Source: Candidatus Liptonbacteria bacterium (GTDB lineage: Bacteria > Patescibacteriota > Minisyncoccia > UBA6257 > 2-01-FULL-56-20). From it: 64,000 nucleotides of DNA. Position 1 is the stretch's first letter; each line of letters starts with the position of its first letter. The translations under genes were made by a program, and so were the position numbers. A model generated the notes under the pieces. That model made no database searches. It saw only the letters and a program-made list of their open reading frames with translations, and was not told the origin of the DNA. This document shows positions 1,225-63,335 of the stretch, piece by piece. The stretch spans positions 51,386 through 115,385 of the forward strand of contig VGJV01000002.1 in NCBI GenBank assembly GCA_016867315.1. The letters are read 5' to 3'.

Positions 1225-1351
1225 GAATTTGAATGACTGTAAAGAACACATAGCTGCAGGGCTTCTCGCAGTCCCGCCAAGGCGGGAAGAGCAGAGCTGC
1301 TGCGGCTGCAGCCGCAGACAGCGTCCCTGCAATATGTGTTCGAACAGTCCA

Positions 1352-2633: not shown

Positions 2634-2717
2634 GTAAGTAGACCCCGTGTAAACAAAAACCTGCCTCCCAAAATTTCGACGAAGTGCGCGCCGACATGCG
2701 CACTGATTCGCCCGAAA

Positions 2718-3125
2718 TTAAAGCGCTAAGGCAGGATCCCTTCGTTCGTGCAGTTTAAGCCAACGAGCGAAACGCTCAGGAAGCTTCAAAAAATTTCCTT
2801 GTAAAGTCTTCAAATAGAGAGAAAGCGCTCCCTCGAAAATATGAGAAGCAATGTGCTGCAGCGCCATCCAACCCGCAAAAAGCAGGAGAAGCGCGGCGAA
2901 CACTCCCCATGCACTCATCGTGGCGAGCGAAAAACCTTTCAAGGCCTCGAGATAAAAACCGGAAGTGGAAACCGCATCCCCTGGAGGACACGCCACACCC
3001 CCATGTGCACTCGCGGCCAAACATCCTCCTCCGTGATTCGCTCCATGATTCATACCGAAAGCCCCCAGCACCGCGATGGATACGAAAGCTAATATAAGAA
3101 ATACAGCTCCTGCTTTCCGGCTCAT
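2718..3125 (-). CDS. Hypothetical membrane protein with a His/Gly-rich segment (possible metal binding)
   Basis: Trimmed to the MSRKAG start. Two TM segments and an HGANHGGGC...AHGGVACPPGD motif. Confidence 0.4.
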   Translation of the reverse strand: MSRKAGAVFLILAFVSIAVLGAFGMNHGANHGGGCLAASAHGGVACPPGDAVSTSGFYLEALKGFSLATMSAWGVFAALLLLFAGWMALQHIASHIFEGALSLYLKTLQGNFLKLPERFARWLKLHERRDPALAL

Positions 3126-3198
3126 ATTCCAATTATAGTATTCTCCCCTAAAAAACAAACCCCATCCATGCGGGGTTAGGAAACCATGCAATTCTACT

Positions 3199-4107
3199 CT
3201 AGCTCTTAAGGTAACGCCGCACTGCGATAAAACTGGAGAGAGCCCCGATACCGATCCCGAAAAGTAATTGATACCCCAAAAGAGTAATGAAGTTCGCGAT
3301 AAAGTATTGGAAAAGGTTCAATCCAGGAATAAATACCGCGAGATATGGGGAAGCAAAGTAAATTGCAGGAGCAATGAAGATAAGACTGGCGACCGCAGCA
3401 ATTGCTCCGGAAATAATGCCTTCAACCATATAAGGGCCGCGCACTAACGCATTCGAAGCCCCTACTACTCGCATAATCCCGATTTCTTCGCGGTTCGAGT
3501 AGATTGCGAGCCGAATAGTATTGAACACCACGAGGCCTGCGATAAGAGAAAGAAGGAGGGTAAGCGTAAACCCTGCTTTATTGACGTTATCGATAATTCG
3601 CGCGAGTCGGTCGATCACCACCTGATTTTTGGCATAACTCACGTTATCGATGTAATTCGAAAGATTCGGCGCGGAAAGATATCGGGCAATAGTCGCATAC
3701 TGTTCCGGCTTCTGAGCCTTGATACTTAAAGAGGCCTGAAAAGGATTGGTATTCAACTCGTTGACAGCCTGGCTGATAACCTGCTCATTTTTATGCGCAG
3801 TTTTAAAAAGCTCGAGCGCCTTGTCGCTCGAAACGTAATTCACGTCTTTCACCTCCGAAAGATTCTCCAGGGATTGTTTGATATTCAAGATCTGATCTTC
3901 GGAAGTATTGTTTTTGAAATACACACTGATATCGATCTTGTCCTGGATGGAAACCACCGCATGCTGAGTCGTAACGCGGAAAAGAATAAGACCTACGAAT
4001 ACCATAAGCGCCAAAATAGTAATAGCCACCGTGGCCGTCGAGAGCCAGCCATTTCGGCGAAAACCTTTGAATCCGAACTGTACGATGCGAAAGACAATAG
4101 TAAACAT
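3199..4107 (-). CDS. ftsX: Cell division ABC transporter permease FtsX
   Basis: 302 aa, four TM helices with a large extracytoplasmic loop, immediately downstream of ftsE. Confidence 0.8.
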   Translation of the reverse strand: MFTIVFRIVQFGFKGFRRNGWLSTATVAITILALMVFVGLILFRVTTQHAVVSIQDKIDISVYFKNNTSEDQILNIKQSLENLSEVKDVNYVSSDKALELFKTAHKNEQVISQAVNELNTNPFQASLSIKAQKPEQYATIARYLSAPNLSNYIDNVSYAKNQVVIDRLARIIDNVNKAGFTLTLLLSLIAGLVVFNTIRLAIYSNREEIGIMRVVGASNALVRGPYMVEGIISGAIAAVASLIFIAPAIYFASPYLAVFIPGLNLFQYFIANFITLLGYQLLFGIGIGALSSFIAVRRYLKS

Positions 4108-7167: not shown

Positions 7168-10100
7168 TGGGAAAATTTGTTCATCTTCACACTCACTCTC
7201 ACTACTCTCTCCTTGATGGCCTTGCGAAAATTGAGGATCTTGTAGGTCGCGCAAAAGAACTCGAAATGGATGCCTTGGCACTCACTGATCACGGCGTGCT
7301 TTACGGCGCAATCGAGTTTTATAAAAAAGCCAAAGCTGCCGGGATCAAACCCATCCTAGGAGTGGAAGCCTATATTGCCCCGAAAGATAGGAGGTCTCGC
7401 GATGCAGGAGAAAAATACTATCACCTCATTCTACTCTCCGAAAATATCACCGGTTGGAAAAATCTTATTAAACTCGTAACGAAAGCGAATCTCGAAGGTT
7501 TTTATTACAAACCGCGGATGGATAAGGACCTTCTTCGTGAATACCACGAAGGAATTATTGCGCTTTCCGCCTGCTTCACGGGAGAAATTCAACGCGCCAT
7601 CAACGAAGATAAAGATACGGACGCAGTATTAAAGGAATACGTGGACATTTTCGGCAAAGAAAACTTCTTCTTGGAAATCGGCTATCACCCTCATGTAAGC
7701 CCCAAACAACACGAAAAGGTGTGGAATGGATTGATCGCCCTCTCCAAACGGTCGGGAATTCCCCTTGCTGCCACGCAGGATATCCATTATGCACACCCCG
7801 ATGATCGCGAATATCATGATGTACTTCTTGCGGTGCAAACAGGAAGCAACCTGTCGGATGGAGATCGATTAACGCTCAAAGCTGACAATTTTTCCATGAC
7901 CTCTCCTGAGGAAATGGAAAAGAATTTTAAAAATATTCCGGAAGCGGTAACGAACACGGTAAAAATCGCCGAGCGCTGCAACGTAGAACTCGAACTTGGG
8001 AAAACCCAGCTCCCTGATTTTCCGAAACCGGAAGGCAAAACTGCCAATCAATATCTCCGCGAACTGGCGTATGAACGTCTCCCCAACCGTTTTTCGAAAG
8101 AAGCGCAAACACAGGAAGTGCTCGACCGGCTGGAGTATGAGTTAGGAGTTATAGAGAAAACCGGCTTCGCCGACTACTTCCTTATCGTGCAAGATCTTAC
8201 CGGCTGGGCTCGTGCGCACGGTATTGCGGTGGGCCCAGGAAGAGGCTCTGCGGCCGGGAGCCTTATGTCCTACGTCCTCGGAATTACGGACATTAACCCA
8301 TTGCGGTACGGGCTCCTCTTTGAGCGTTTTTTAAATCCGGAACGTATTCAAATGCCCGACATCGACATCGATTTCGCCGACACTCGCCGGGATGAAGTGT
8401 TAGCCTATGCACGTCAAAAATACGGCGAAGATCGCGTAGCCCAGATCATCACGTTTGGAACAATGGCTGCCCGTGCCGCAGTACGCGACGCCGGCCGCGC
8501 CATGGGCCTTCAATATGGCTTTTGCGATCAAATCGCGAAACTCATTCCTTTCAATGCCACGATCGAGGAATCGTTGGAACAAGTTCCTGAACTTCTCGAA
8601 CTTTACAAAAAAACTCCGGATGCAAAACGCGTGATGGATACAGCGAAGCACCTCGAAGGGGTGGCACGGCATGCGTCGGTACACGCCTGCGGTACTGTGA
8701 TTTCCAAAAAATCTCTTACCGAATACCTCCCACTCCAATACGCGCCGCAAGACAAAAACGCGATTATTACTCAATTTGAAATGCATTCCGTGGAAGACCT
8801 TGGGCTCCTTAAAATGGATCTTCTGGGTTTGAAAAACCTCACTATAATCGAAGAAACTATTCGGCTCGTAAAAGATCTGCGGGGAGAGGAAATCCAAATC
8901 TCGAATCTGCCACTCGACGACAAAGCCACCTTCACGCTGCTCCAAGCCGGAAATACCACGGGCGTATTTCAATTTGAGTCATCGGGCATGCGCCGCTACA
9001 TGAAAGAAATCCACCCAACCGAACTCGAAGATTTAATCGCCTTAGTAGCGCTGTTCCGCCCGGGTCCTATGGAACTTATTCCCACTTTTATTAAACGCAA
9101 ACACGGCCTGGAGAAAATCACCTATCTTCACCCCCACCTCGAACCAATTTTGAAAACCACCTACGGCATCGGTGTGTATCAAGAGCAAATGATGCAAATC
9201 GCCCGGGACGTTGCGGGGTACACCTTGCCCGAAGCAGACACGTTGCGGAAAGCTATCGGGAAAAAGATTAAATCGCTTTTGGATGAACAAAAATCCAAGC
9301 TGGTGAACGGAATGGTAAAGAACGGCATTCCCCCAAAGATTGCGGAAGCAATTTGGGAACTCTTCCCGCCCTTCGCCCGATACGGATTCAACAAGAGTCA
9401 CGCCGCCTGCTATGCCTTGATCGGCTATCAAACTGCCTACTTGAAAGCCCATTATCCCATCGAATACATGGCGGCACTCCTCAATGCCGATCTGAACGAT
9501 TTGGATCGCATTTCCTTCCTGGTAAATGAAGCCAAACAAAACAACATTCCAGTGCTCGCTCCCGATGTTAACAAAAGCTTCGTAAAATTTGCTCCGGAGG
9601 AAGGGAAAATCCGCTTCGGCCTTTTAGGAATCAAAAATGTCGGTTCTCAAATCGCGCACGCCATTATTGAGGAACGGATAAAAGGCGGAGCTTTCCAAAC
9701 TTTCACGGACTTCCTCGCCCGCATTCAACACAAAGATTTGAATAAAAAATCTTTGGAAAGCTTGGCAAAGGGAGGTGCTTTGGAATCCTTAGGCGTGGAA
9801 CGCAATCAGGTAATCCAAAATTTGGATGACATCGTGCGTTTTGCGGGCGCCGCGCGGAAAACCGCCGGCCAATCAAATTCCCTCTTCGGCTCTTCTACCG
9901 CCTCGCTTTCCATAAAGCTAAAACCCGCGCCTCCCGCTACTCGGGAAGAAAAACTGGGCTGGGAAAAGGAACTCCTGGGCTTCTATCTCTCGGATCATCC
10001 GTTGAACTCTTATAAAGAAAAAATAAACTGGCTCAAAGCGAAGCCGCTCCATGAAGTTCGCGCCATCAAAGACGAAACCAAAACCTTCCGCGCCGCGGGC

Positions 10101-12285: not shown

Positions 12286-12426
12286 TGTTATCCATACTAC
12301 CAGCTTTTTAGGCCCTTACAAAATGGAACCGTCTCTTCTTCCAACATAAATGAAGTCCTGTTTCTGCAAGGATTCTCGAACCACTTTCCCAACTAAGTGA
12401 AATCCTGCTTTTCTCGAACGTGGTCC

Positions 12427-12522
12427 AATATGCGAAGTCCTGTTTCGTGCAGAGATTCTCGGAGTGCGTCGGCACGAGAGCATAGCGGTCGCGAAAGCCC
12501 TTCGCGAACCGCGTCCCCGCAA
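12427..12522. repeat. GC-rich structured repeat, copy 1 (conserved core plus a covarying closing helix). Partial copies lie at 12342-12372 and 12387-12410
   Basis: Core GATTCTCGGAGTGCGTCGGCACGAGAGCATAGCGGTCGCGAAAGCCCTTCGCGAACCGCGTCCCC. Flanked by gtcctgtttcgtgc ... gcaagaaataggac (14-bp helix). Lies between the greA stop and the lysS start. Confidence 0.6.
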
Positions 12523-12542
12523 GAAATAGGACAAGCCCCTTT

Positions 12543-15876: not shown

Positions 15877-17148
15877 TTATTGGATCCCTTCGTATTCACG
15901 CACCGTAAGCTGCGAATCAATCTGCCTCATGGTCTCCAAAGCCACCGCCACTACAATAAGCAACGCCGTACCGCTTACGGTAAGCACCGCTACCCCCGTG
16001 ATCGCCTGCACAATGATAGGCAAAATCGCAATGAGCCCCAAAAACACGGCCCCGAAGAAAGTCACACGATTCACGGTTTTTTTGAAGAATTCTTCAGTCA
16101 TTTCTCCCGGTCGGATTCCCGGAATAAACCCTCCTCCTCGCTGTAAATTCTTGGCTACCTCCGATGGATTGAATGTGATCGAAGTGTAGAAATAGGTGAA
16201 TGCGAACACAAGCGAGAAGTAGATGATCCCGTAGAACATTCGGTTATTAAGCACACTCGTCACGATCTCATTAAGTTTGACTCCCACCCCGGGAGAAATG
16301 GCCGTCATCACCTGCGCGATGAATTGCGGGAAAAGGAATACTGAGATTGCGAAGATCAAAGGAATCATTCCTGCTTGGTTTACTTTAAGCGGCAGGTAGC
16401 TCGATACTCCGCCGAACATCTTCATGCCCCGCACACGTCGAGCGTACGCCACAGGCACTTTCCGCTCCCCCTCGTTCAAATACACGACTCCAAAGATCAC
16501 AAGAAGCAACACTAAAAGGAATCCGATGTAGGTAGCCAATTTCGCGGGCGTGTAGGAAAGGAGCAGCAAACGCACATTCGCCGGCAAGCCCGCCACAATT
16601 CCTGCAAGGATGATAAGCGAAATGCCATTCCCCACTTTTTGCTCAGTGATAAGTTCTCCGAGCCACACTGCGATCATTGCTCCCGCGGTGATCACCACCA
16701 CAGTCGTAAGCAAAAGCCAAGCATCCGGTCGATCGAGAACTCCCGAACTCATAAGGAGTGCAAGGAATCCGTACGCCTGAAGCACTGCAAGCGGCACGGT
16801 GAGCATTCGGGAATATTGATTAAATTTCGCACGTCCTTGGGCTCCTTCCTCGTAATAAAGTTGCTTGAACTTCGGGAAAATGAGCGTCAAAAGCTGCATG
16901 ATAATTGTCGCCGTGATGTACGGTCCTACCCCCAACATCATGACCGACAAACTTTCTAATCCTCCTCCTGAAAAAAAGTTCAAAAAACCCAAGAGCTGGT
17001 TGGAGTTGAAATATTGCTGGAGTCTGTCCGCATCCACCCCGGGAATAGGAATAGCGGCAAAGAAACGGTATGCCACAAGTACCCCTAATACGATAAGGAT
17101 TTTGTTGCGGATTTCAGGGATTCTAAAAATTTGGAGGATTCGATTCAT
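15877..17148 (-). CDS. secY: Preprotein translocase subunit SecY
   Basis: 10 TM segments and SecY signature regions. Trimmed to MNRILQIFRIPEIRNKIL, because the longer ORF would overlap the upstream repeat element. Confidence 0.9.
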   Translation of the reverse strand: MNRILQIFRIPEIRNKILIVLGVLVAYRFFAAIPIPGVDADRLQQYFNSNQLLGFLNFFSGGGLESLSVMMLGVGPYITATIIMQLLTLIFPKFKQLYYEEGAQGRAKFNQYSRMLTVPLAVLQAYGFLALLMSSGVLDRPDAWLLLTTVVVITAGAMIAVWLGELITEQKVGNGISLIILAGIVAGLPANVRLLLLSYTPAKLATYIGFLLVLLLVIFGVVYLNEGERKVPVAYARRVRGMKMFGGVSSYLPLKVNQAGMIPLIFAISVFLFPQFIAQVMTAISPGVGVKLNEIVTSVLNNRMFYGIIYFSLVFAFTYFYTSITFNPSEVAKNLQRGGGFIPGIRPGEMTEEFFKKTVNRVTFFGAVFLGLIAILPIIVQAITGVAVLTVSGTALLIVVAVALETMRQIDSQLTVREYEGIQ

Positions 17149-17171
17149 AACGTTAAGTAGTAAAAAGAGAC

Positions 17172-17272
17172 GTCGGCTTCGGGTGGAAAAGGGATTCTCG
17201 GAGCGCGGCGGCGCGAGAGCATAGCGGCTGCGAAAGCCCATCGCGGACCGCGTCCCTTTGCCATACGAAGCC
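17172..17272. repeat. GC-rich structured repeat, copy 2 (between rplO and secY)
   Basis: Core GGGATTCTCGGAGCGCGGCGGCGCGAGAGCATAGCGGCTGCGAAAGCCCATCGCGGACCGCGTCCC. Flanked by cggcttcgggtggaaaaggga ... tccctttgccatacgaagccg (21-bp helix, 19 pairs). Confidence 0.6.
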
Positions 17273-17291
17273 GCGCCGGAGCATACTCATA

Positions 17292-17735
17292 TTATTGCAC
17301 TTTTCCTCCTGCCTTCTCAATCTGAGCCTTGGCAGACTTAGATGTCGGCAAACCGTGAAGCTCGAGAGAGGCCGAAAGCTCTCCCCCTCCCAAAATTTTC
17401 ACTGCGCCGCGAAACCCCGGTGGAATAATACCTGCCTTCTGAAGTACCTCGCGGTTCACCACCAAAGGTGCCTTGCTGTCATGAAGCGGCGCTAACTTCT
17501 TTCCGAGAATTCCTACTTGAATCGGTATCGGCTTAGCCTCAATCGGCTTATTGCGAAACCCTCGACGCTTAGGAAGTCGAATAATGAGATCGCGCACCGC
17601 CGGCCGGATACGCCGCCCGGATCGGGATTTCTGCCCCTTTACTCCGCGTCCGGAATAACTGCCTCGCTTACCGCTGCGCCCAATGCGCTGCGCTCGCTTT
17701 TTAGCCGGATTTTTTTGTAATTCGTGTAATTGCAT
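17292..17735 (-). CDS. rplO: 50S ribosomal protein L15
   Basis: Gly/Arg-rich N-terminus and L15 family conservation. Position in the spc operon. Confidence 0.9.
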   Translation of the reverse strand: MQLHELQKNPAKKRAQRIGRSGKRGSYSGRGVKGQKSRSGRRIRPAVRDLIIRLPKRRGFRNKPIEAKPIPIQVGILGKKLAPLHDSKAPLVVNREVLQKAGIIPPGFRGAVKILGGGELSASLELHGLPTSKSAKAQIEKAGGKVQ

Positions 17736-25292: not shown

Positions 25293-25832
25293 TTATCGCG
25301 TCTCAATTTCGAGAAGACTCCCGCGCATGCCGGGCACCGCTCCTTTGACCATTAAAAGACTTCTCTCCTTATCTACTCCCACAATTTTCAAATTTTTGAT
25401 CGTCACCCGTTCCACTCCCATGTGTCCCGCCATCCGTCGGCCGGGAATAACGCGCTGCGGAGTTGTGTTGCCAATAGAACCAGGCATCCGATAGCGGTTC
25501 TTTTGTCCGTGGGTCTTCGGCCCTCCGCCGAACCCGTGCCGCTTTACTACCCCCTGGAATCCGCGTCCTTTGGTAAACGCACTCACACGCACAACGTCGC
25601 CTTCTTTGAACGCCGACACGTCTATCGTGTCTCCTTTTTTGAGTTCTCCGGTTCCTTTGAATTCCTTGCGCGCCTTCCCCAGCTGGACCTGTACTGCACT
25701 GTACCCATCCTTCTCGGGAACCCGCACAAGGGAAATAGTATTCGGTTCGGCCTTAATAACCGTGACCGGAATCACTTTTTTATCTTGCCAAATTTGGCTC
25801 ATTTTAAATTTTTTCCCCAAAATGAATGACAT
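25293..25832 (-). CDS. rplC: 50S ribosomal protein L3
   Basis: Trimmed to MSFILGKKFKMSQIW, the classic L3 N-terminus. Confidence 0.85.
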   Translation of the reverse strand: MSFILGKKFKMSQIWQDKKVIPVTVIKAEPNTISLVRVPEKDGYSAVQVQLGKARKEFKGTGELKKGDTIDVSAFKEGDVVRVSAFTKGRGFQGVVKRHGFGGGPKTHGQKNRYRMPGSIGNTTPQRVIPGRRMAGHMGVERVTIKNLKIVGVDKERSLLMVKGAVPGMRGSLLEIETR

Positions 25833-26049
25833 CCAATTCGCATTATTTGCCTCCATTCGAATTATTCGCGATTACTCCTAAATAAAAACTGCCCAAGGCA
25901 CGTACCTTTAGGCAGGGACGTCCTTGTGCAACCCAGCTCTTTACGCTTTAGGAATCCAGCACAACATCCCTAGAAAATTCTCACATCGAGAAGTTATACG
26001 GGACAATGTGTTGTTGCCTAAAGGGCTGGGCCATTAAAGAGACTGGAAC

Positions 26050-26080
26050 ATGATAAGCCAAATGGCAAAAAGTGTCAAAC
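26050..26080 (-). terminator. Hairpin terminator immediately after the RelE/ParE toxin gene
   Basis: aaaaagtAGTGTttgACACTttttgcc is a perfect palindrome flanked by A/T runs. Confidence 0.55.
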
Positions 26081-26081
26081 A

Positions 26082-26360
26082 CTACTTTTTGGGTTTCTTG
26101 TATACCTTATCCCGCAACGCAATGCGATGAATCGTAACAATATGTGATTCGTGTTCCATCTCGTAAACCACTCGCCAATCTCCTACACGCAGCTTAAAAT
26201 ATCCGTGCCACTCGTGGCCAAGCGCCTCATGAACAACCGAAGGAAAATTCTCGCGAAACCACTCCAATTTGCCTAAAATCCTTCTCTGTACTGGCGCGTC
26301 CAAAGAGCGTAAATCTTCCTCTCCGGTGAGAGTGAAAGTAAATTTCCAGCCCGAGGACAT
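26082..26360 (-). CDS. Type II toxin, RelE/ParE family
   Basis: 92 aa. FKLRVGDWRVVYEMEHESHIVTIHRIALRDKVY is typical of the RelE/ParE fold (plasmid stabilisation system protein). Confidence 0.75.
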   Translation of the reverse strand: MSSGWKFTFTLTGEEDLRSLDAPVQRRILGKLEWFRENFPSVVHEALGHEWHGYFKLRVGDWRVVYEMEHESHIVTIHRIALRDKVYKKPKK

Positions 26361-26368
26361 TCTATAAA

Positions 26369-26569
26369 CTAGAGCGAACTCACTACCTCCTCAAAAGTAC
26401 GGATCCTGCCTTGCTTTTTTTCCGCAGCAGATTTCTTGAGTCTCTTTACAAACGCGGAGCGAATCTCAAGTCCTTTGTCAGAATCGATAAGCAATTCGCG
26501 CAATGCACGCTGCACCGCCCGCTCCACCACTGCTTCGATTTTTTTTTCTTCAATAGTAATGCGAGCCAT
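26369..26569 (-). CDS. Putative antitoxin (ribbon-helix-helix or Phd-like), partner of the RelE/ParE toxin
   Basis: 66 aa, helical and charged. Stop lies 9 nt upstream of the toxin start. Confidence 0.6.
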   Translation of the reverse strand: MARITIEEKKIEAVVERAVQRALRELLIDSDKGLEIRSAFVKRLKKSAAEKKQGRIRTFEEVVSSL

Positions 26570-26980
26570 GCTTTCACTCTACCTCCTAAAAATGGAAAGT
26601 CAATGAAGCTTGGTCTGAAGCGTACGCGTATTCCCATGTTTCAAGAGCCCTCGATACGATTCGAGCGTTGCCGATTTTCCATTATTCGCCACATTCTTGA
26701 ACATCCGCCGCTTCGTCGCCGTGCGGAGTACGCGATGGTCGGGAAAATGGAAGGTGTTCATACTTTTTTTTGCCACGGGGACTTGGACGCACACTCGCTC
26801 TATGCGAGGGCGTTGCATCACTTATTGATTTTGCCGCAGCACTCATTCCGCGACTGTCTGCTTCTTCTACATCAATCCGCGACATGAATGCTGGGGCAAA
26901 AAACCTCTCAAAAGATTGGGTAAATCATACCATTTCTCAATAAAAAACGCAAGGATTAAAGGATTAGCCTTGAAAACACA

Positions 26981-27007
26981 AACGCACCCTTTCGAGTGCG
27001 TTTTGTT
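26981..27007. terminator. Intrinsic terminator-like hairpin downstream of rpsJ and the copy-3 repeat
   Basis: aacgcac-cctttcga-gtgcgtt stem-loop followed by ttttgtt. On the minus strand it is followed by gtgttttc. Confidence 0.55.
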
Positions 27008-27020
27008 ACTAATCCAATAA

Positions 27021-27055
27021 GCGAAGTCCTGTTCCAGATGGGGATTCTCGAACCC
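27021..27055. repeat. Partial copy of the GC-rich structured repeat (5' helix strand plus the first 9 nt of the core)
   Basis: gcgaagtcctgttccagatggggattctcgaaccc is the same truncation point (ctcgaacc) as the two partial copies at 12.34-12.41 kb. Confidence 0.5.
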
Positions 27056-27099
27056 AATAAAAGGAACGGGGGCATATTCTCTTACAGCTAACAAAGCGA

Positions 27100-27195
27100 A
27101 ATCCTGCCGCTTGTGGGGATTGTCGGAGCGCGGCGGCGCGAGACATAGCGCTGCGAGAGCCCCTCGCAGATAGCGTCCCCACAAGTGACAGGATG
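27100..27195. repeat. GC-rich structured repeat, copy 3 (3' of rpsJ)
   Basis: Core GGGATTGTCGGAGCGCGGCGGCGCGAGACATAGCGCTGCGAGAGCCCCTCGCAGATAGCGTCCCC. Flanked by atcctgccgcttgtgggga ... tccccacaagtgacaggat (19-bp helix, one mismatch, one G-U). Confidence 0.6.
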
Positions 27196-27203
27196 AGCGC
27201 CTC

Positions 27204-27536
27204 TTATACCATTTTAATTTCGACGTCGACCCCAGCCGGCAGGTTCAGGTTCCCAAGAGATTCAATGATCTTCTGATTCGGATTCATGATATCGATGAGC
27301 CGCTTGTGCATCCGAAGCTCGAACTGCTCCCGCGAATCCTTGTGTACGAAGGTAGAACGGTTCACGGTATACTTCCGCGTCTCGGTGGGCAACGGAATTG
27401 GCCCCACCACCTTCGCATCGTGCCGCTCTGCGGCATCGATGATCTGGCGCGCAGAAGAATCGATCAGCTTGTGGTCGTAGGAACGAATCCGCAAGCGGAG
27501 CTTCTGATGAAAATCGTTTTCCTGTTTCTTAGCCAT
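27204..27536 (-). CDS. rpsJ: 30S ribosomal protein S10
   Basis: 110 aa. Family conservation. Confidence 0.9.
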
Positions 27537-34802: not shown

Positions 34803-37664
34803 CTATCTCCCTCCCAAAAGATTCACGAACGGCGCAATGATTGTTCCTAAAAGTGAGGGCTGATTTCTCGAAGACTGCGGAGGTGGCGGAGGAGGTTGCG
34901 ACTCTCCACTAGGAGGGGGAGGAGGTGGAGGTGTTCCCTGACTCGGCTGAGGGTACGTGCCCTGCGGAGGCTGAGGATACATTCCTTGCGGAGGGTACTG
35001 CATTCCTCCCGGCGGCTTAGGATACTGACCATCCATTCCCGGCTGGAAACCCGCCGGAGGATTCATAGGATATTGCCCCGGCTGTCCTGGAGTCCCTGGT
35101 TGACCCGGAAATCCCCCCTGTGGAGGCATGCCTGGAGCTCCCGTCGGGAACTGCCCCTGCATCTGTCGGTTCACTTCTCCCTGAAACCGCTCTTGATACT
35201 GTTTCTGAAACTCCGCGTTGTACTGCTGATTAAATTGCTGATTGAACTGCTGCCTATGCTGCTCGTTAAATTGCTCCGGCCGTTGCCCACTCTCCACCGG
35301 AGGCCCGATCGGGCGCGGAGGAACTCTCCCCGGCTCTATGCGGCCGCCTTCCTGTCCAGGAGCACCGCCGTGTTGATTTTTTCCTTGCTCCATCTTGCCG
35401 TAACACTCTCCAATAGCTTTAGCGACTTCGGGAGAAGGCTCACTTCCTCGGCGCAGTTTTTCCAAATCCGCGGCCTCCCCCAGCATAGTCTTCACGCACT
35501 GGAGTACTGGCTCTGGTGCAGGACCCCTGCCCTGCACAGCACCTTGTCCTTGCGGATTCCCCGGAGGTCCGAACCGCTGGTCAGGTTTGCCTCCAGGAAA
35601 ATTCCCTTGTCCCCCTCGGGAACCTGGCAAACTCTCAAAACACTCCTGCATGGCTTTTCCTATAGCTCCTCCCCGGCCACCTCCCGCACGCAATGCTTCC
35701 CCACCTACTTCCCCTCCTATTTTTCCTTTCACGCAGGAAAGCACTTCAGGAGGTATCCCATGCTGAGGCCCCCCTTTAGTTCCCTGCTCTCCCGCGAAAC
35801 TTCCTTGCCCAGGTCTCTGCATTTTCCCGAAACACTCCCGAATGGCCTGTCCCAGAGACCCCCGGTCCGATTCCGCACCGCGCAGCTTTTCCTCAGTAAC
35901 CTCACTACCTGTTTTTTCTTTTACGCACGAGAGCACCTCATGAGGAATTCCTCCCCGCCCGAATGCCTGCCCTTCTCCAGACGGAAATCCTTGCGACCCG
36001 GGGCCACTTGGAAACCCTCCTTGCTCGCCTCGCTCATACCTAGCAGGCGAAGCGGGCCCGCCCTCTCCTCCTGCGGGAGGACCGAAGTGTTCTTGAGGCC
36101 GGAACTGCTCGAAACAACCCCTCATAACCGAAGGGTCTAATCCTTCGACAAGTTCCCCATTTTGAAGCTTTTCGAAATTCGCACCAAGCTTCTCCTTGAA
36201 ACAACTCGCCACTTGAGGTGGAGCCGTACGAAGGAACCGCTGAAAGTCGTGTGGTTGAGGCCTTCCGAATCCTCGACCAGCACCCCCTTGTCCCGGCTGT
36301 CCAGGGCCGCCTGGCTGCCCTCGGAATTCTCCTCCCGGACCACCCGGTCCCCCGGGCTCTCCGAAAAATCCTCCTTTTTCAAATTGCACACTTTGGAAAC
36401 ACACTCGGAAGGTATCCGCGATCTCGGGCGTAGGCGCTTCTTCTCCTTTCTTTATCTTCTCAAATTTATCCCCGAGTTTTTCCTGAATACAAGCGATCAC
36501 CCCCTTCGGGGCATCCTTGAACATATCCTGCGGACCTTTGCGATGTCCGAACTTCTCAAAACACCCCCCCACGCGCTCTCCAATTTCCGGCCCAGGAGTA
36601 AGTTTCCCAGATTCAATATCTTCAATCACATTTGGGCCCACCACCGATTTCAAACAGGCTGCCACTTCTGGAGGAGCATGCTCAAGGCCCGCACGCACCC
36701 GCACAAAGCCCTCTTTGGCCCGCCGCACTTCTTCTTTGCTGATAAATCCATGTTCTTCCGCAAATTTAAAACAGGCTTCTCGATTTGCCGGATCATTACA
36801 GTACGCCTCACACGCCCGGGGAGAGCTACAACCTCCCGGCCCCTTGCCTCCAGTTTTGCGAATCCGTTCTGCTTCGTCTCGGGACATAAACCCAGCTTTT
36901 TCTGCAAACGCCACGCATTCTTCTCCATGCGCCGGCCCATTGCAATATGCCTCACACGCTTCCTTGGATTTACAGCCGCCAGGAGTTTCCCCTTTTTTCG
37001 CAAGCTCCATCACCTTCTGGAACTGCTCAGGAGAAAGATCGTCATCTCCGTGCTGCGGCCCAGGCCCTCCCGGCCGCGCCTGTCCTTTGGCCTGAATAAT
37101 CCCCGCCTTCTTTGCAAACTCAAAACACTCTTCCGCATGGGAAAAATCACTGCAATATGTTTTACATTCCTGCTCGGATTTACATCCTCCAGGCGTAGTA
37201 CCTCCCGCCTTGATATGCTTTAATACCCTCTCCCCCTGTTCCAAATCCCTGCTTTTAATCCCCTGTTTCTTCGCAAAACTCACACATTCTTCTAAATGAG
37301 TGATATCGCTGCAGTACGCTTCACATTCCCCGGGGCTTTTACACCCACCCGGTCCCCCCTTCGCCACCGCCTGGGAGAATTTTTTTGCCCGTTGAGCCTC
37401 TTCTTTATTCATCAATCCGCTCTTCTCCGCAAACGCCACGCACGCTTCTACATTCGCGGGATTTTCACAGTATTGTTTGCAGGCCTGTTTATCCCCGCAG
37501 TTCCCCAATTCCGGGATGGGAAAAATAATACCGCTCGCTTGAATCTGCGCGTCCGTGGGGCCTTCCGGCACATTCGATTCTTGGGCATACACTGCCCCGA
37601 AAAATCCCGCCCATACAAACGCGAACCCCACCAGACCAAGCCCAATGCGCAATTTGATATTCAT
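34803..37664 (-). CDS. Large secreted modular protein with cysteine-motif repeats and Gly/Pro/Gln low-complexity regions; putative surface/adhesin protein
   Basis: Signal peptide (MNIKLRIGLGLVGFAFVWAGFFGAVYA). Five modules of CX5CX3CX8C (e.g. CKSPGECEAYCSDITHLEECVSFAKK), six modules of about 45 aa with two Cys (PPEVLSCVKEKxG...CFExx), GGPGGPGG/QPG linkers, a Q/N/F-rich then P-rich tail, and a hydrophobic C-terminus. Confidence 0.75.
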   Translation of the reverse strand: MNIKLRIGLGLVGFAFVWAGFFGAVYAQESNVPEGPTDAQIQASGIIFPIPELGNCGDKQACKQYCENPANVEACVAFAEKSGLMNKEEAQRAKKFSQAVAKGGPGGCKSPGECEAYCSDITHLEECVSFAKKQGIKSRDLEQGERVLKHIKAGGTTPGGCKSEQECKTYCSDFSHAEECFEFAKKAGIIQAKGQARPGGPGPQHGDDDLSPEQFQKVMELAKKGETPGGCKSKEACEAYCNGPAHGEECVAFAEKAGFMSRDEAERIRKTGGKGPGGCSSPRACEAYCNDPANREACFKFAEEHGFISKEEVRRAKEGFVRVRAGLEHAPPEVAACLKSVVGPNVIEDIESGKLTPGPEIGERVGGCFEKFGHRKGPQDMFKDAPKGVIACIQEKLGDKFEKIKKGEEAPTPEIADTFRVCFQSVQFEKGGFFGEPGGPGGPGGEFRGQPGGPGQPGQGGAGRGFGRPQPHDFQRFLRTAPPQVASCFKEKLGANFEKLQNGELVEGLDPSVMRGCFEQFRPQEHFGPPAGGEGGPASPARYERGEQGGFPSGPGSQGFPSGEGQAFGRGGIPHEVLSCVKEKTGSEVTEEKLRGAESDRGSLGQAIRECFGKMQRPGQGSFAGEQGTKGGPQHGIPPEVLSCVKGKIGGEVGGEALRAGGGRGGAIGKAMQECFESLPGSRGGQGNFPGGKPDQRFGPPGNPQGQGAVQGRGPAPEPVLQCVKTMLGEAADLEKLRRGSEPSPEVAKAIGECYGKMEQGKNQHGGAPGQEGGRIEPGRVPPRPIGPPVESGQRPEQFNEQHRQQFNQQFNQQYNAEFQKQYQERFQGEVNRQMQGQFPTGAPGMPPQGGFPGQPGTPGQPGQYPMNPPAGFQPGMDGQYPKPPGGMQYPPQGMYPQPPQGTYPQPSQGTPPPPPPPSGESQPPPPPPQSSRNQPSLLGTIIAPFVNLLGGR

Positions 37665-38053: not shown

Positions 38054-38143
38054 ATATGTCCGGCGGGGATTCTCGGAGCGCGACGGCGTGAGAGTATAGC
38101 GGCCGCGAGAGCCCCGCGCGGACCGCGTCCCCGCAGGACATAT
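38054..38143. repeat. GC-rich structured repeat, copy 4 (between the Kelch gene and the small membrane protein gene)
   Basis: Core GGGATTCTCGGAGCGCGACGGCGTGAGAGTATAGCGGCCGCGAGAGCCCCGCGCGGACCGCGTCCCC. Flanked by atatgtccggcgggga ... tccccgcaggacatat (16-bp helix, one mismatch). Confidence 0.6.
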
Positions 38144-63174: not shown

Positions 63175-63247
63175 GTGGGTGTGGAAGGAATCGAACCTTC
63201 GACCTCTGTCTTATCAGGACAGCGTTCTACCACTGAACTACACACCC
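63175..63247 (-). tRNA. tRNA-Ile (anticodon GAT)
   Basis: GGGTGTGTAGTTCAGTGGTAGAACGCTGTCCTGATAAGACAGAGGTCGAAGGTTCGATTCCTTCCACACCCACC. Anticodon loop CTGATAA. CCA is not fully encoded. Confidence 0.85.
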
Positions 63248-63299
63248 GTATAAAATTTCGTTTTCTCCGAGCGAACCATTTGTATCAAAATACTTTGAT

Positions 63300-63335
63300 A
63301 TCAGGACAGCGTTCTACCACTGAACTACACACCCG
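63300..63335 (-). pseudogene. Partial duplicate of tRNA-Ile (positions 1-36, from the 5' end through the anticodon), followed on the minus strand by a tatcaaa-atac-tttgata hairpin
   Basis: 36-nt exact identity to 63213-63248. Diverges immediately 3' of the anticodon GAT. Confidence 0.6.

Follow-up and report, generated by a model that had tools for sequence, protein, structure and literature searches.

The interval between rpsJ and rplC

The window, i.e. the complete 64,000-nucleotide stretch of DNA analysed here, has three ribosomal clusters (str, S10 and spc) on its minus strand, with the genes in the order rpsL, rpsG, fusA, tuf, rpsJ, a gap, rplC, rplD, rplW, rplB, rpsS and onwards to rplO and secY. 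A metagenome contig of 85.6 kb was identical in sequence to the window, an identical small ORF is recorded at NCBI for a Candidatus Liptonbacteria MAG, and the closest S10 proteins belonged to Patescibacteria/Parcubacteria in every case. The gap spans 1347 nt between the end of rpsJ at 27204 and the start of rplC at 25856. Following the minus strand 3' of rpsJ, one meets a full repeat, a partial repeat, a terminator, the remnant of a reverse-transcriptase (RT) gene, a 66-aa ORF, a toxin gene, a promoter and a leader before rplC begins (L031, L033, L162 and L163 are contigs of relatives introduced below):

27204..27536, minus strand: rpsJ (S10), 26 nt downstream of tuf; PF00338 match, C-terminus intact
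27100..27195, plus strand (motif strand, antisense to rpsJ): full copy of a three-way-junction palindromic element, from inverted arms, fold and covariance-model match
27013..27054, plus strand: decayed partial copy (5' flank, 5' arm of P1 and first core bases), from similarity to the copy downstream of greA
26970..27003, minus strand: predicted intrinsic terminator of the tuf-rpsJ transcript, from hairpin scan, fold and comparison with L162
26606..26761, minus strand: C-terminal remnant of an RT gene (tblastn E 1e-15; the homologues are RT fragments)
26576..26603, minus strand: promoter-like site TTGACT-16-TAGAGT before the antitoxin gene, from promoter scan and reading; putative function
26369..26569, minus strand: putative antitoxin, 66 aa, from position and size only
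26082..26360, minus strand: RelE/ParE-superfamily toxin, 92 aa (PF05016)
26050..26078, minus strand: predicted promoter of the rplC operon, TTGACA-17-TATCAT, matching 11/12 consensus positions and conserved in L031, L033, L162 and L163
25857..26043, minus strand: conserved rplC leader of ~190 nt, from folding and comparison with relatives
25293..25856, minus strand: rplC (L3), first gene of the L3-L4-L23-L2-S19... cluster

Elsewhere in the window, part of a tRNA-Ile gene is duplicated as a perfect 37-nt direct repeat (63212-63248 and 63299-63335, 87 nt apart), which could be a relic of integration at the tRNA. A 953-aa ORF at 34803-37664 on the minus strand carries internal GC-rich direct repeats.

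The C-terminus of S10 is unchanged, as in an alignment the window protein and those of six relatives all end in ...EIKMV. A terminator had been predicted behind the gene at 26981-27007, and we located it at 27003-26980 as a GC-rich hairpin followed by a U-tract: it has a 10-bp stem, a tetraloop, a T-run and the tail GTGTTTTC and folds with -16.4 kcal/mol (z -4.8). Just downstream, at 26924-26952 on the minus strand, a possible extended -10 promoter, TTGCGT-17-(TGg)TATGAT, can be read by eye, which was absent from the promoter scan. In the stretch of ~200 nt between the terminator and the RT remnant no ORF with a family match was found. A second terminator, predicted at 26050-26080, did not survive: the AU-rich stem at this place reached -8.3 kcal/mol with a z score of 0.04, i.e. 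as for shuffled sequence, it was unlisted by the terminator scan, and the site matches a promoter instead. The hexamers and the spacing of this rplC promoter are conserved among the relatives while the spacer sequences differ.

Between promoter and rplC lies the leader, which like the RT remnant had been overlooked in the original prediction. It comprises a UCUCUUUAAUGG box, a variable helix H1, a terminal hairpin H2 (~25889-25931) and a U-tract at 25881-25888. Comparison across the window, L031, L033, L162, L163 and L164 gave the hairpin consensus GGAUUGCACAAGGAYGU...GCCUUGGGCGAUUUUU, and both helices are retained in the relatives with some compensatory changes. The leader had no match in Rfam. 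By its attenuator-like design it is a candidate ribosomal-protein attenuator. It resembles the E. coli S10 leader, the site of L4-mediated attenuation, in being a hairpin-plus-U-tract leader just upstream of an rplD-containing cluster, here conserved in five genomes. It differs in being located before rplC rather than rpsJ and in having neither sequence nor Rfam similarity. Before rpsJ, which starts 26 nt past tuf, no leader of the E. coli S10 type or any other leader was found.

The homologues of the RT remnant are themselves RT fragments (P0134 matches PF00078 and TIGR04416), and the remnant is also found in the relative L031 (6398-6547), conserved at the protein level. An origin as the tail of a DGR reverse transcriptase was considered and dropped, given that the support extends to an RT remnant only, with the best partial matches to a group-II-intron-type RT and to UG4. 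We also rejected that remnant and repeat form one retroelement: their orientations are opposite, and the RT-fragment loci L153-L155 are devoid of the element. Many similar RT fragments of 63-93 aa are annotated as hypothetical proteins in Patescibacteria. At L154 (3001-3856) another RT fragment lies directly 5' of a HicB/HicA toxin-antitoxin pair, and the RT homology stops (..KRRM.K) where the short contigs of the window break. Nine such short contigs with an identical rpsJ end at 26684-26724, several rplC contigs begin at 26681 or 26065, and the Logan assemblies of the organism all break at 26681-26724, within the RT remnant, with their rpsJ contigs ending at 26693-26724 and their rplC contigs starting at 26681. 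This suggests that the sequence at the break is repeated elsewhere in the genome or in the community.

Downstream of the remnant a RelE/ParE toxin-antitoxin pair had been predicted. For the toxin this assignment stood, with a RelE/ParE-type domain found by PF05016 (ParE_toxin) at 29.6 bits for a cutoff of 23; TIGR02385 scored 21.9 bits, below its cutoff of 27.9, and the RelE-like PDB matches were weak (E 2e-4 to 0.6). The 66-aa ORF ends 8 nt before the toxin gene and matched no antitoxin family and no PDB entry, such that it is called antitoxin from position and size only. In its layout, i.e. a small upstream gene, 8 nt, a 92-aa PF05016 toxin and a promoter-like site upstream, the cassette is like type II RelBE/ParDE modules, but it differs from them in an antitoxin without known family and a toxin under the TIGR02385 cutoff. 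Unusual is also its site inside a ribosomal-protein promoter; in the literature we found no description of a toxin-antitoxin pair in the S10/L3 junction. The cassette, ~525 nt in length, is located at the -35 box of the rplC promoter and has TTGAC on either side (26603-26599 and 26078-26074). The left TTGAC, which belongs to the promoter-like site before the antitoxin gene, comes directly after sequence with homology to the end of the L031 remnant. The bracketing motif, of 5 nt only, could be a target duplication, a duplicated promoter or chance. An identical toxin is encoded in 16 contigs, and in 16/16 the context is the same, with JGI contigs bridging the assembly break. A strain-specific presence of the pair, raised earlier as something to check, found no backing, as no strain without the cassette was found; for the same reasons (shared context, bridged break) we rejected the assembly breaks as a sign of strain polymorphism.

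The boundary in related genomes

We compared the interval with the contigs encoding the six closest S10 proteins on long contigs (S10 identity 84-93%):

L033, S10 92%, gap 179 nt: GC hairpin right after rpsJ, TTGACA-17-TATCAT, leader TTCCAGTCTCTTTAATGG...GGATTGCACAAGGATGT...GCCTTGGGCGATTTTTT
L031, S10 93%, gap 350 nt: hairpin and T-run, RT remnant as in the window, same promoter and leader
L162, S10 92%, gap 513 nt: terminator ACGCACTCGCAAGGGTGCGTTTT, then promoter and leader
L163, S10 85%, gap 417 nt: hairpin terminator, TTGACA-17-TACAAT, leader
L164, S10 84%, gap 68 nt: final hairpin and U-tract only
L032, S10 93%, no rplC after rpsJ: 664 nt non-coding (2697-3360), then tmk, gatB and miaA-like genes

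In L032 the ribosomal cluster is thus physically broken after rpsJ.

According to the original prediction a contiguous S10-L3-L4 transcript had been split by one insertion of 1.3 kb that brought in the repeat together with the toxin-antitoxin pair and uncoupled S10 from the rest of its operon. That these two are lineage-specific additions was borne out by synteny: repeat and toxin-antitoxin genes are absent from the loci of all six relatives, five of which have gaps of 68-513 nt as compared to 1347 nt in the window. The gap of L164 (84% S10 identity) is tight, with 68 nt and no recognisable promoter, as a once contiguous transcript would have it, and a predicted terminator does follow rpsJ in the window. 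However, four relatives without the inserts (L033, L031, L162 and L163) already carry terminator, promoter and leader, such that the separation of rpsJ and rplC appears to be ancestral and older than the inserts. The L162 terminator ACGCACTCGCAAGGGTGCGTTTT, 67 nt past the rpsJ stop, matches ACGCACTCGAAAGGGTGCGTTT of the window, and judged by sequence the two are clearly orthologous. Furthermore, the old terminator is preceded by the repeat, L031 has the RT remnant as well, and the cassette is located at the promoter, which argues for at least three separate events instead of one insertion. A split of a continuous operon by one insertion is, taking these data together, highly improbable.

We consider it rather likely that the spacer between rpsJ and rplC marks an ancestral operon boundary at which selfish DNA later inserted. 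In this clade, rpsJ would be the last gene of an rpsL-rpsG-fusA-tuf-rpsJ transcript that ends at its own intrinsic terminator, and the rplC cluster would be transcribed from its own sigma-70-type promoter through a conserved leader with an attenuator-like terminal hairpin and U-tract. A composite repeat copy, partial plus full, would then have entered downstream of the rpsJ stop codon but ahead of the old terminator, and transcription would now place it, as a hairpin in antisense orientation, within the 3' UTR of rpsJ. The RT gene remnant, common to one relative, would have come to sit between terminator and promoter, and the ~525-nt RelE/ParE-type cassette would have landed at the -35 box of the rplC promoter with a TTGAC direct repeat on either side. 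We infer the activities of terminator, promoter and attenuator from sequence, and likewise the order of the events. Parsimony favours gain over loss of cassette and repeat, as both are absent from 6/6 relatives, a comparison of six relatives without a tree.

A structured repeat family

The full repeat copy behind rpsJ, originally predicted at 27100-27195, has inverted arms of 19-20 nt at 27100-27119 and 27176-27195 that enclose a covariance-model match at 27109-27185 (64.4 bits, E ~1e-15). It folds with -59 to -61 kcal/mol (either strand ~-60; z -4.7 to -6.0) and begins 8 nt from the rpsJ stop codon, or 3 nt if the outermost extra pairs are included. The truncated copy predicted at 27021-27055 was recovered at 27013-27054 as a sequence similar to the copy downstream of greA: positions 27013-27050 are 79% identical to 12424-12461, which hold the 5' flank and 5' arm of that copy, and GGATTCTCGAACC occurs exactly at 27042-27054 and at 12370-12382. 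The arrangement of a partial plus a full copy recurs downstream of greA (~12350-12540), with 77% identity between both loci. Taken by itself the partial copy has no structure (z ~0).

Four copies in the window share the core UCGGAG(C/U)GCGNCGGC(G/A)(C/U)GAGA:

12445-12523, plus strand: repeat copy
17184-17262, plus strand: repeat copy
27109-27185, plus strand: repeat copy
38058-38138, plus strand: repeat copy
1252-1333, plus strand: fifth, diverged repeat copy (covariance-model match 31-33 bits)

The fifth copy, which the original prediction had overlooked, differs in the sequence of the P2 tip and retains P1, P3 and the bulged A; it is located 18 nt from the stop codon of the ORF 1352-2134. 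All five lie on the plus strand, starting 3-21 nt past the stop codon of a minus-strand ORF or gene (an unnamed ORF, greA, rplO, rpsJ and a Kelch-repeat gene), such that their motif strand is antisense to all neighbouring genes. None of the five is a clear case of a copy inside a gene. Common terminal inverted repeats or target duplications were not found among the window copies, and their outer stems differ. The copy at 17184-17262 (region 17148-17292) fills the rplO-secY spacer, where gene callers place the secY start at 17241, within the element. The SecY-like N-terminus (MNRILQIF...) starts at 17148, such that the annotated 31-aa secY extension is probably spurious. A general rule of stop codon, repeat and terminator was rejected, as a scan-called terminator is present only at the rpsJ copy.

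A covariance model built from 18 members gave 85 matches in 84 sources, the window included, on CPR contigs. The core pattern itself was found in Niyogibacteria, where one MAG has 10 copies, as well as in Yanofskybacteria, another CPR MAG and >119 metagenome loci; about half of the latter are chance matches in GC-rich DNA while the remainder are low-GC, CPR-like contigs.

True members all adopt one fold, a three-way junction of about 72-110 nt composed of an outer stem P1, P2, a purine junction, P3 and a short 3' junction. P1 is long and variable, with recurrent tandem G.A mismatches. In P2, a variable helix of 5 bp that retains a non-canonical U.U or U.C position is combined with an internal loop (GGA/GA), a second helix (GCGC/GCGC) and a GNCG loop. 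P3, which a short purine junction precedes, has a base of 3-4 bp and a bulged A, and its upper helix is rich in either AU or GC. The 3' junction measures 1-3 nt and usually holds a conserved G; many members have GUG here, and the window copies have a single G. The internal loop GGA/GA and the loop GNCG are conserved, as are the junction purines and the bulged A, where for P2 the conservation is partly an artefact of the procedure by which members were found.

Over the model alignment, 90.8% of the cells at paired positions could pair, compared to 61.8% after shuffling (0/500 shuffles reached the observed value) and at most 51% for slid partners, for an alignment that was itself fitted to the model. 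In this same fitted alignment two-sided changes were present at 27/28 base pairs, and covariation was strong in P1, P2a and P3. The two strands are not equivalent. The motif strand had the lower free energy in 51/54 elements, and at its paired positions we counted 68 G-U versus 29 A-C combinations and 90 purine-purine versus 25 pyrimidine-pyrimidine mismatches. Comparison with Rfam 15 returned no family at the gathering score and none of relevance at E limits of 10 or 1, and a description of such a palindromic element was not found in the literature.

The Niyogibacteria copies are multicopy, non-coding elements of ~190 nt. They have the junction in the centre, end in inverted repeats of 18 nt (TAGAACTCATCCCAAAAC) and are flanked by TA at either end. 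Outer ends related to these (TTTCAAAAC...) reappear in other lineages. With respect to flanking ORFs the orientation in other genomes is mixed (roughly 15 versus 11), and head-to-head pairs were seen in L098 and L143. Within 8-kb loci around the copies no recurrent protein family or transposase was found; the neighbours are unrelated housekeeping genes, for which reason a partner gene was rejected. A phage origin was rejected as well: seven pattern matches in viral contigs were chance, and the model had 0 matches there. K-turn, hammerhead, twister, attC site and tRNA-like origins fell out on inspection of their features, with ARAGORN and Rfam finding nothing.

In a number of loci the element lies within a gene. 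Compared to the recG of L091, that of L149 (element at 7996-8073) has 41 aa inserted in frame between helicase motifs II and III. In recG of L095 (1758-1836), polA of L053 (1058-1135, antisense orientation) and dnaE of L063 (541-616) the element is contained within one ORF with Pfam domains on both sides. The two recG insertions are at different positions.

A second arrangement of the modules, in which P2 and a longer P3 (GGUCGCGGAAUUUUUCAGCAGAAAAAUAUCCGUGACC) come after an unrelated upstream hairpin (e.g. CUGAAA...UUUCAG) and the enclosing P1 is missing, was seen in L055, L056, L065, L092, L097, L124, L127, L130, L134, L136 and L151. These loci score only 26-35 bits with the model.

Nature of the repeat and meaning of the locus

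Rickettsia palindromic elements are multicopy palindromic repeats that occur between genes as well as in frame inside essential genes. The present family behaves like them: it is ~80-190 nt long, is present in many copies per small genome, occupies spacers and, in frame, essential genes (here recG, polA and dnaE), and has no known associated gene, a likeness by behaviour. Due to this behaviour we infer that the repeat is a selfish palindromic element tolerated at rpsJ rather than a regulator. It differs from the Rickettsia elements in its Patescibacteria host, in the strand asymmetry and in its core, a conserved three-way junction in which compensatory changes occur even between distant lineages. 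Mobilisation may involve recognition of this junction. Unexplained by a selfish element are the strand asymmetry as well as the shared orientation and stop-codon proximity of the five window copies.

Two other groups of repeats resemble the family in part. REP/BIME sequences of Enterobacteria and Pseudomonas are likewise GC-rich extragenic hairpins at gene 3' ends or within operons, also in head-to-head pairs, with a possible role as mRNA 3' stabiliser or terminator. REPs are, in contrast to the three-way junction of the window family, simple imperfect palindromes of 20-40 nt with a GTAG head that are mobilised by RAYT; the family has no GTAG head, and no RAYT was seen in the partial-genome DNA examined. 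With MITEs, e.g. the Correia elements of Neisseria, the Niyogibacteria members share the terminal design (~190 nt, 18-nt inverted repeats, TA ends). The pattern of conservation is reversed, as here the inverted repeats vary between lineages while the internal junction is conserved.

E. coli REP sequences near stop codons block exonucleases, stabilise mRNA 3' ends and hinder terminating ribosomes. At rpsJ the repeat precedes the old terminator and would fall within the transcribed 3' UTR, such that the tuf-rpsJ mRNA should carry its reverse complement as a hairpin of ~-59 kcal/mol, which could stabilise the 3' end of this mRNA or hinder terminating ribosomes. By extension, the repeat could be a domesticated cis-acting element of the mRNA strand, with the 3'-UTR hairpin serving as a barrier to exonucleases, as a pause or termination site for transcription, or as an obstacle at which terminating ribosomes stall. 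The single orientation of the five window copies at 3-21 nt past stop codons, the strong folding of the mRNA-sense strand (-47 to -59 kcal/mol) and the U-rich runs after some copies are in line with such a role. The orientation of the copies is, though, confounded with the replication direction (GC skew -0.13), given that nearly all window genes are on one strand, and their proximity to stop codons is partly forced by the short spacers. Moreover, the strand that folds better and tolerates wobble pairs family-wide is the opposite one, and in other genomes the orientation is mixed and copies inside coding regions run both ways. We therefore regard a domesticated mRNA element as quite unlikely.

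The strand asymmetry would be accounted for if the motif strand encoded, or were recognised as, a functional single-stranded molecule, either a small RNA or ribozyme antisense to gene 3' ends or an ssDNA hairpin for a transposase or recombinase acting in trans. The strong covariation in P1, P2a and P3, the conserved loops, bulged A and junction purines, and the bias towards wobble pairs and purine-purine mismatches on one strand, with the recurrent tandem G.A in P1, all agree with this, as does the MITE-like appearance of the Niyogibacteria copies with their 18-nt terminal inverted repeats and TA flanks. However, the promoter scan found no plus-strand promoter upstream, no transposase or partner gene was found near the copies in the 8-kb loci, and the window copies are without common terminal repeats or target duplications. 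Judging by the copies that lie in frame within genes, at least many copies are no more than tolerated DNA, and the P2 conservation partly reflects how the members were found. A functional molecule of this kind thus appears rather unlikely. With similar reservation, as a tentative proposal, the three-way-junction core might represent an undescribed class of functional single-stranded nucleic acid, i.e. a protein-binding or catalytic RNA or an ssDNA module of a mobilisation machinery, that rides on mobile palindromic elements across Patescibacteria and tolerates or exploits insertion in 3' UTRs and essential coding regions. Our preferred reading remains that of a selfish, tolerated element.

To our knowledge, almost nothing is known about gene regulation in the Patescibacteria (CPR) phylum. 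In this CPR clade S10 is predicted to belong to the str/tuf transcript, with the L3 cluster having its own promoter and an attenuator-like leader, and the rplC leader is a candidate for a new ribosomal-protein regulatory element. At such a boundary, selfish DNA would be accepted even within the best conserved gene cluster that a streamlined genome of ~1 Mb has, here including a toxin-antitoxin pair lodged in a ribosomal-protein promoter. More than the locus itself, it is the element family and the conserved rplC leader that merit further study. The repeat constitutes a widespread structured family that distorts gene calls, as for the secY start inside a copy, and adds peptides to essential replication and repair proteins. 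It thereby matters for the annotation of CPR genomes and for searches for new RNA classes.
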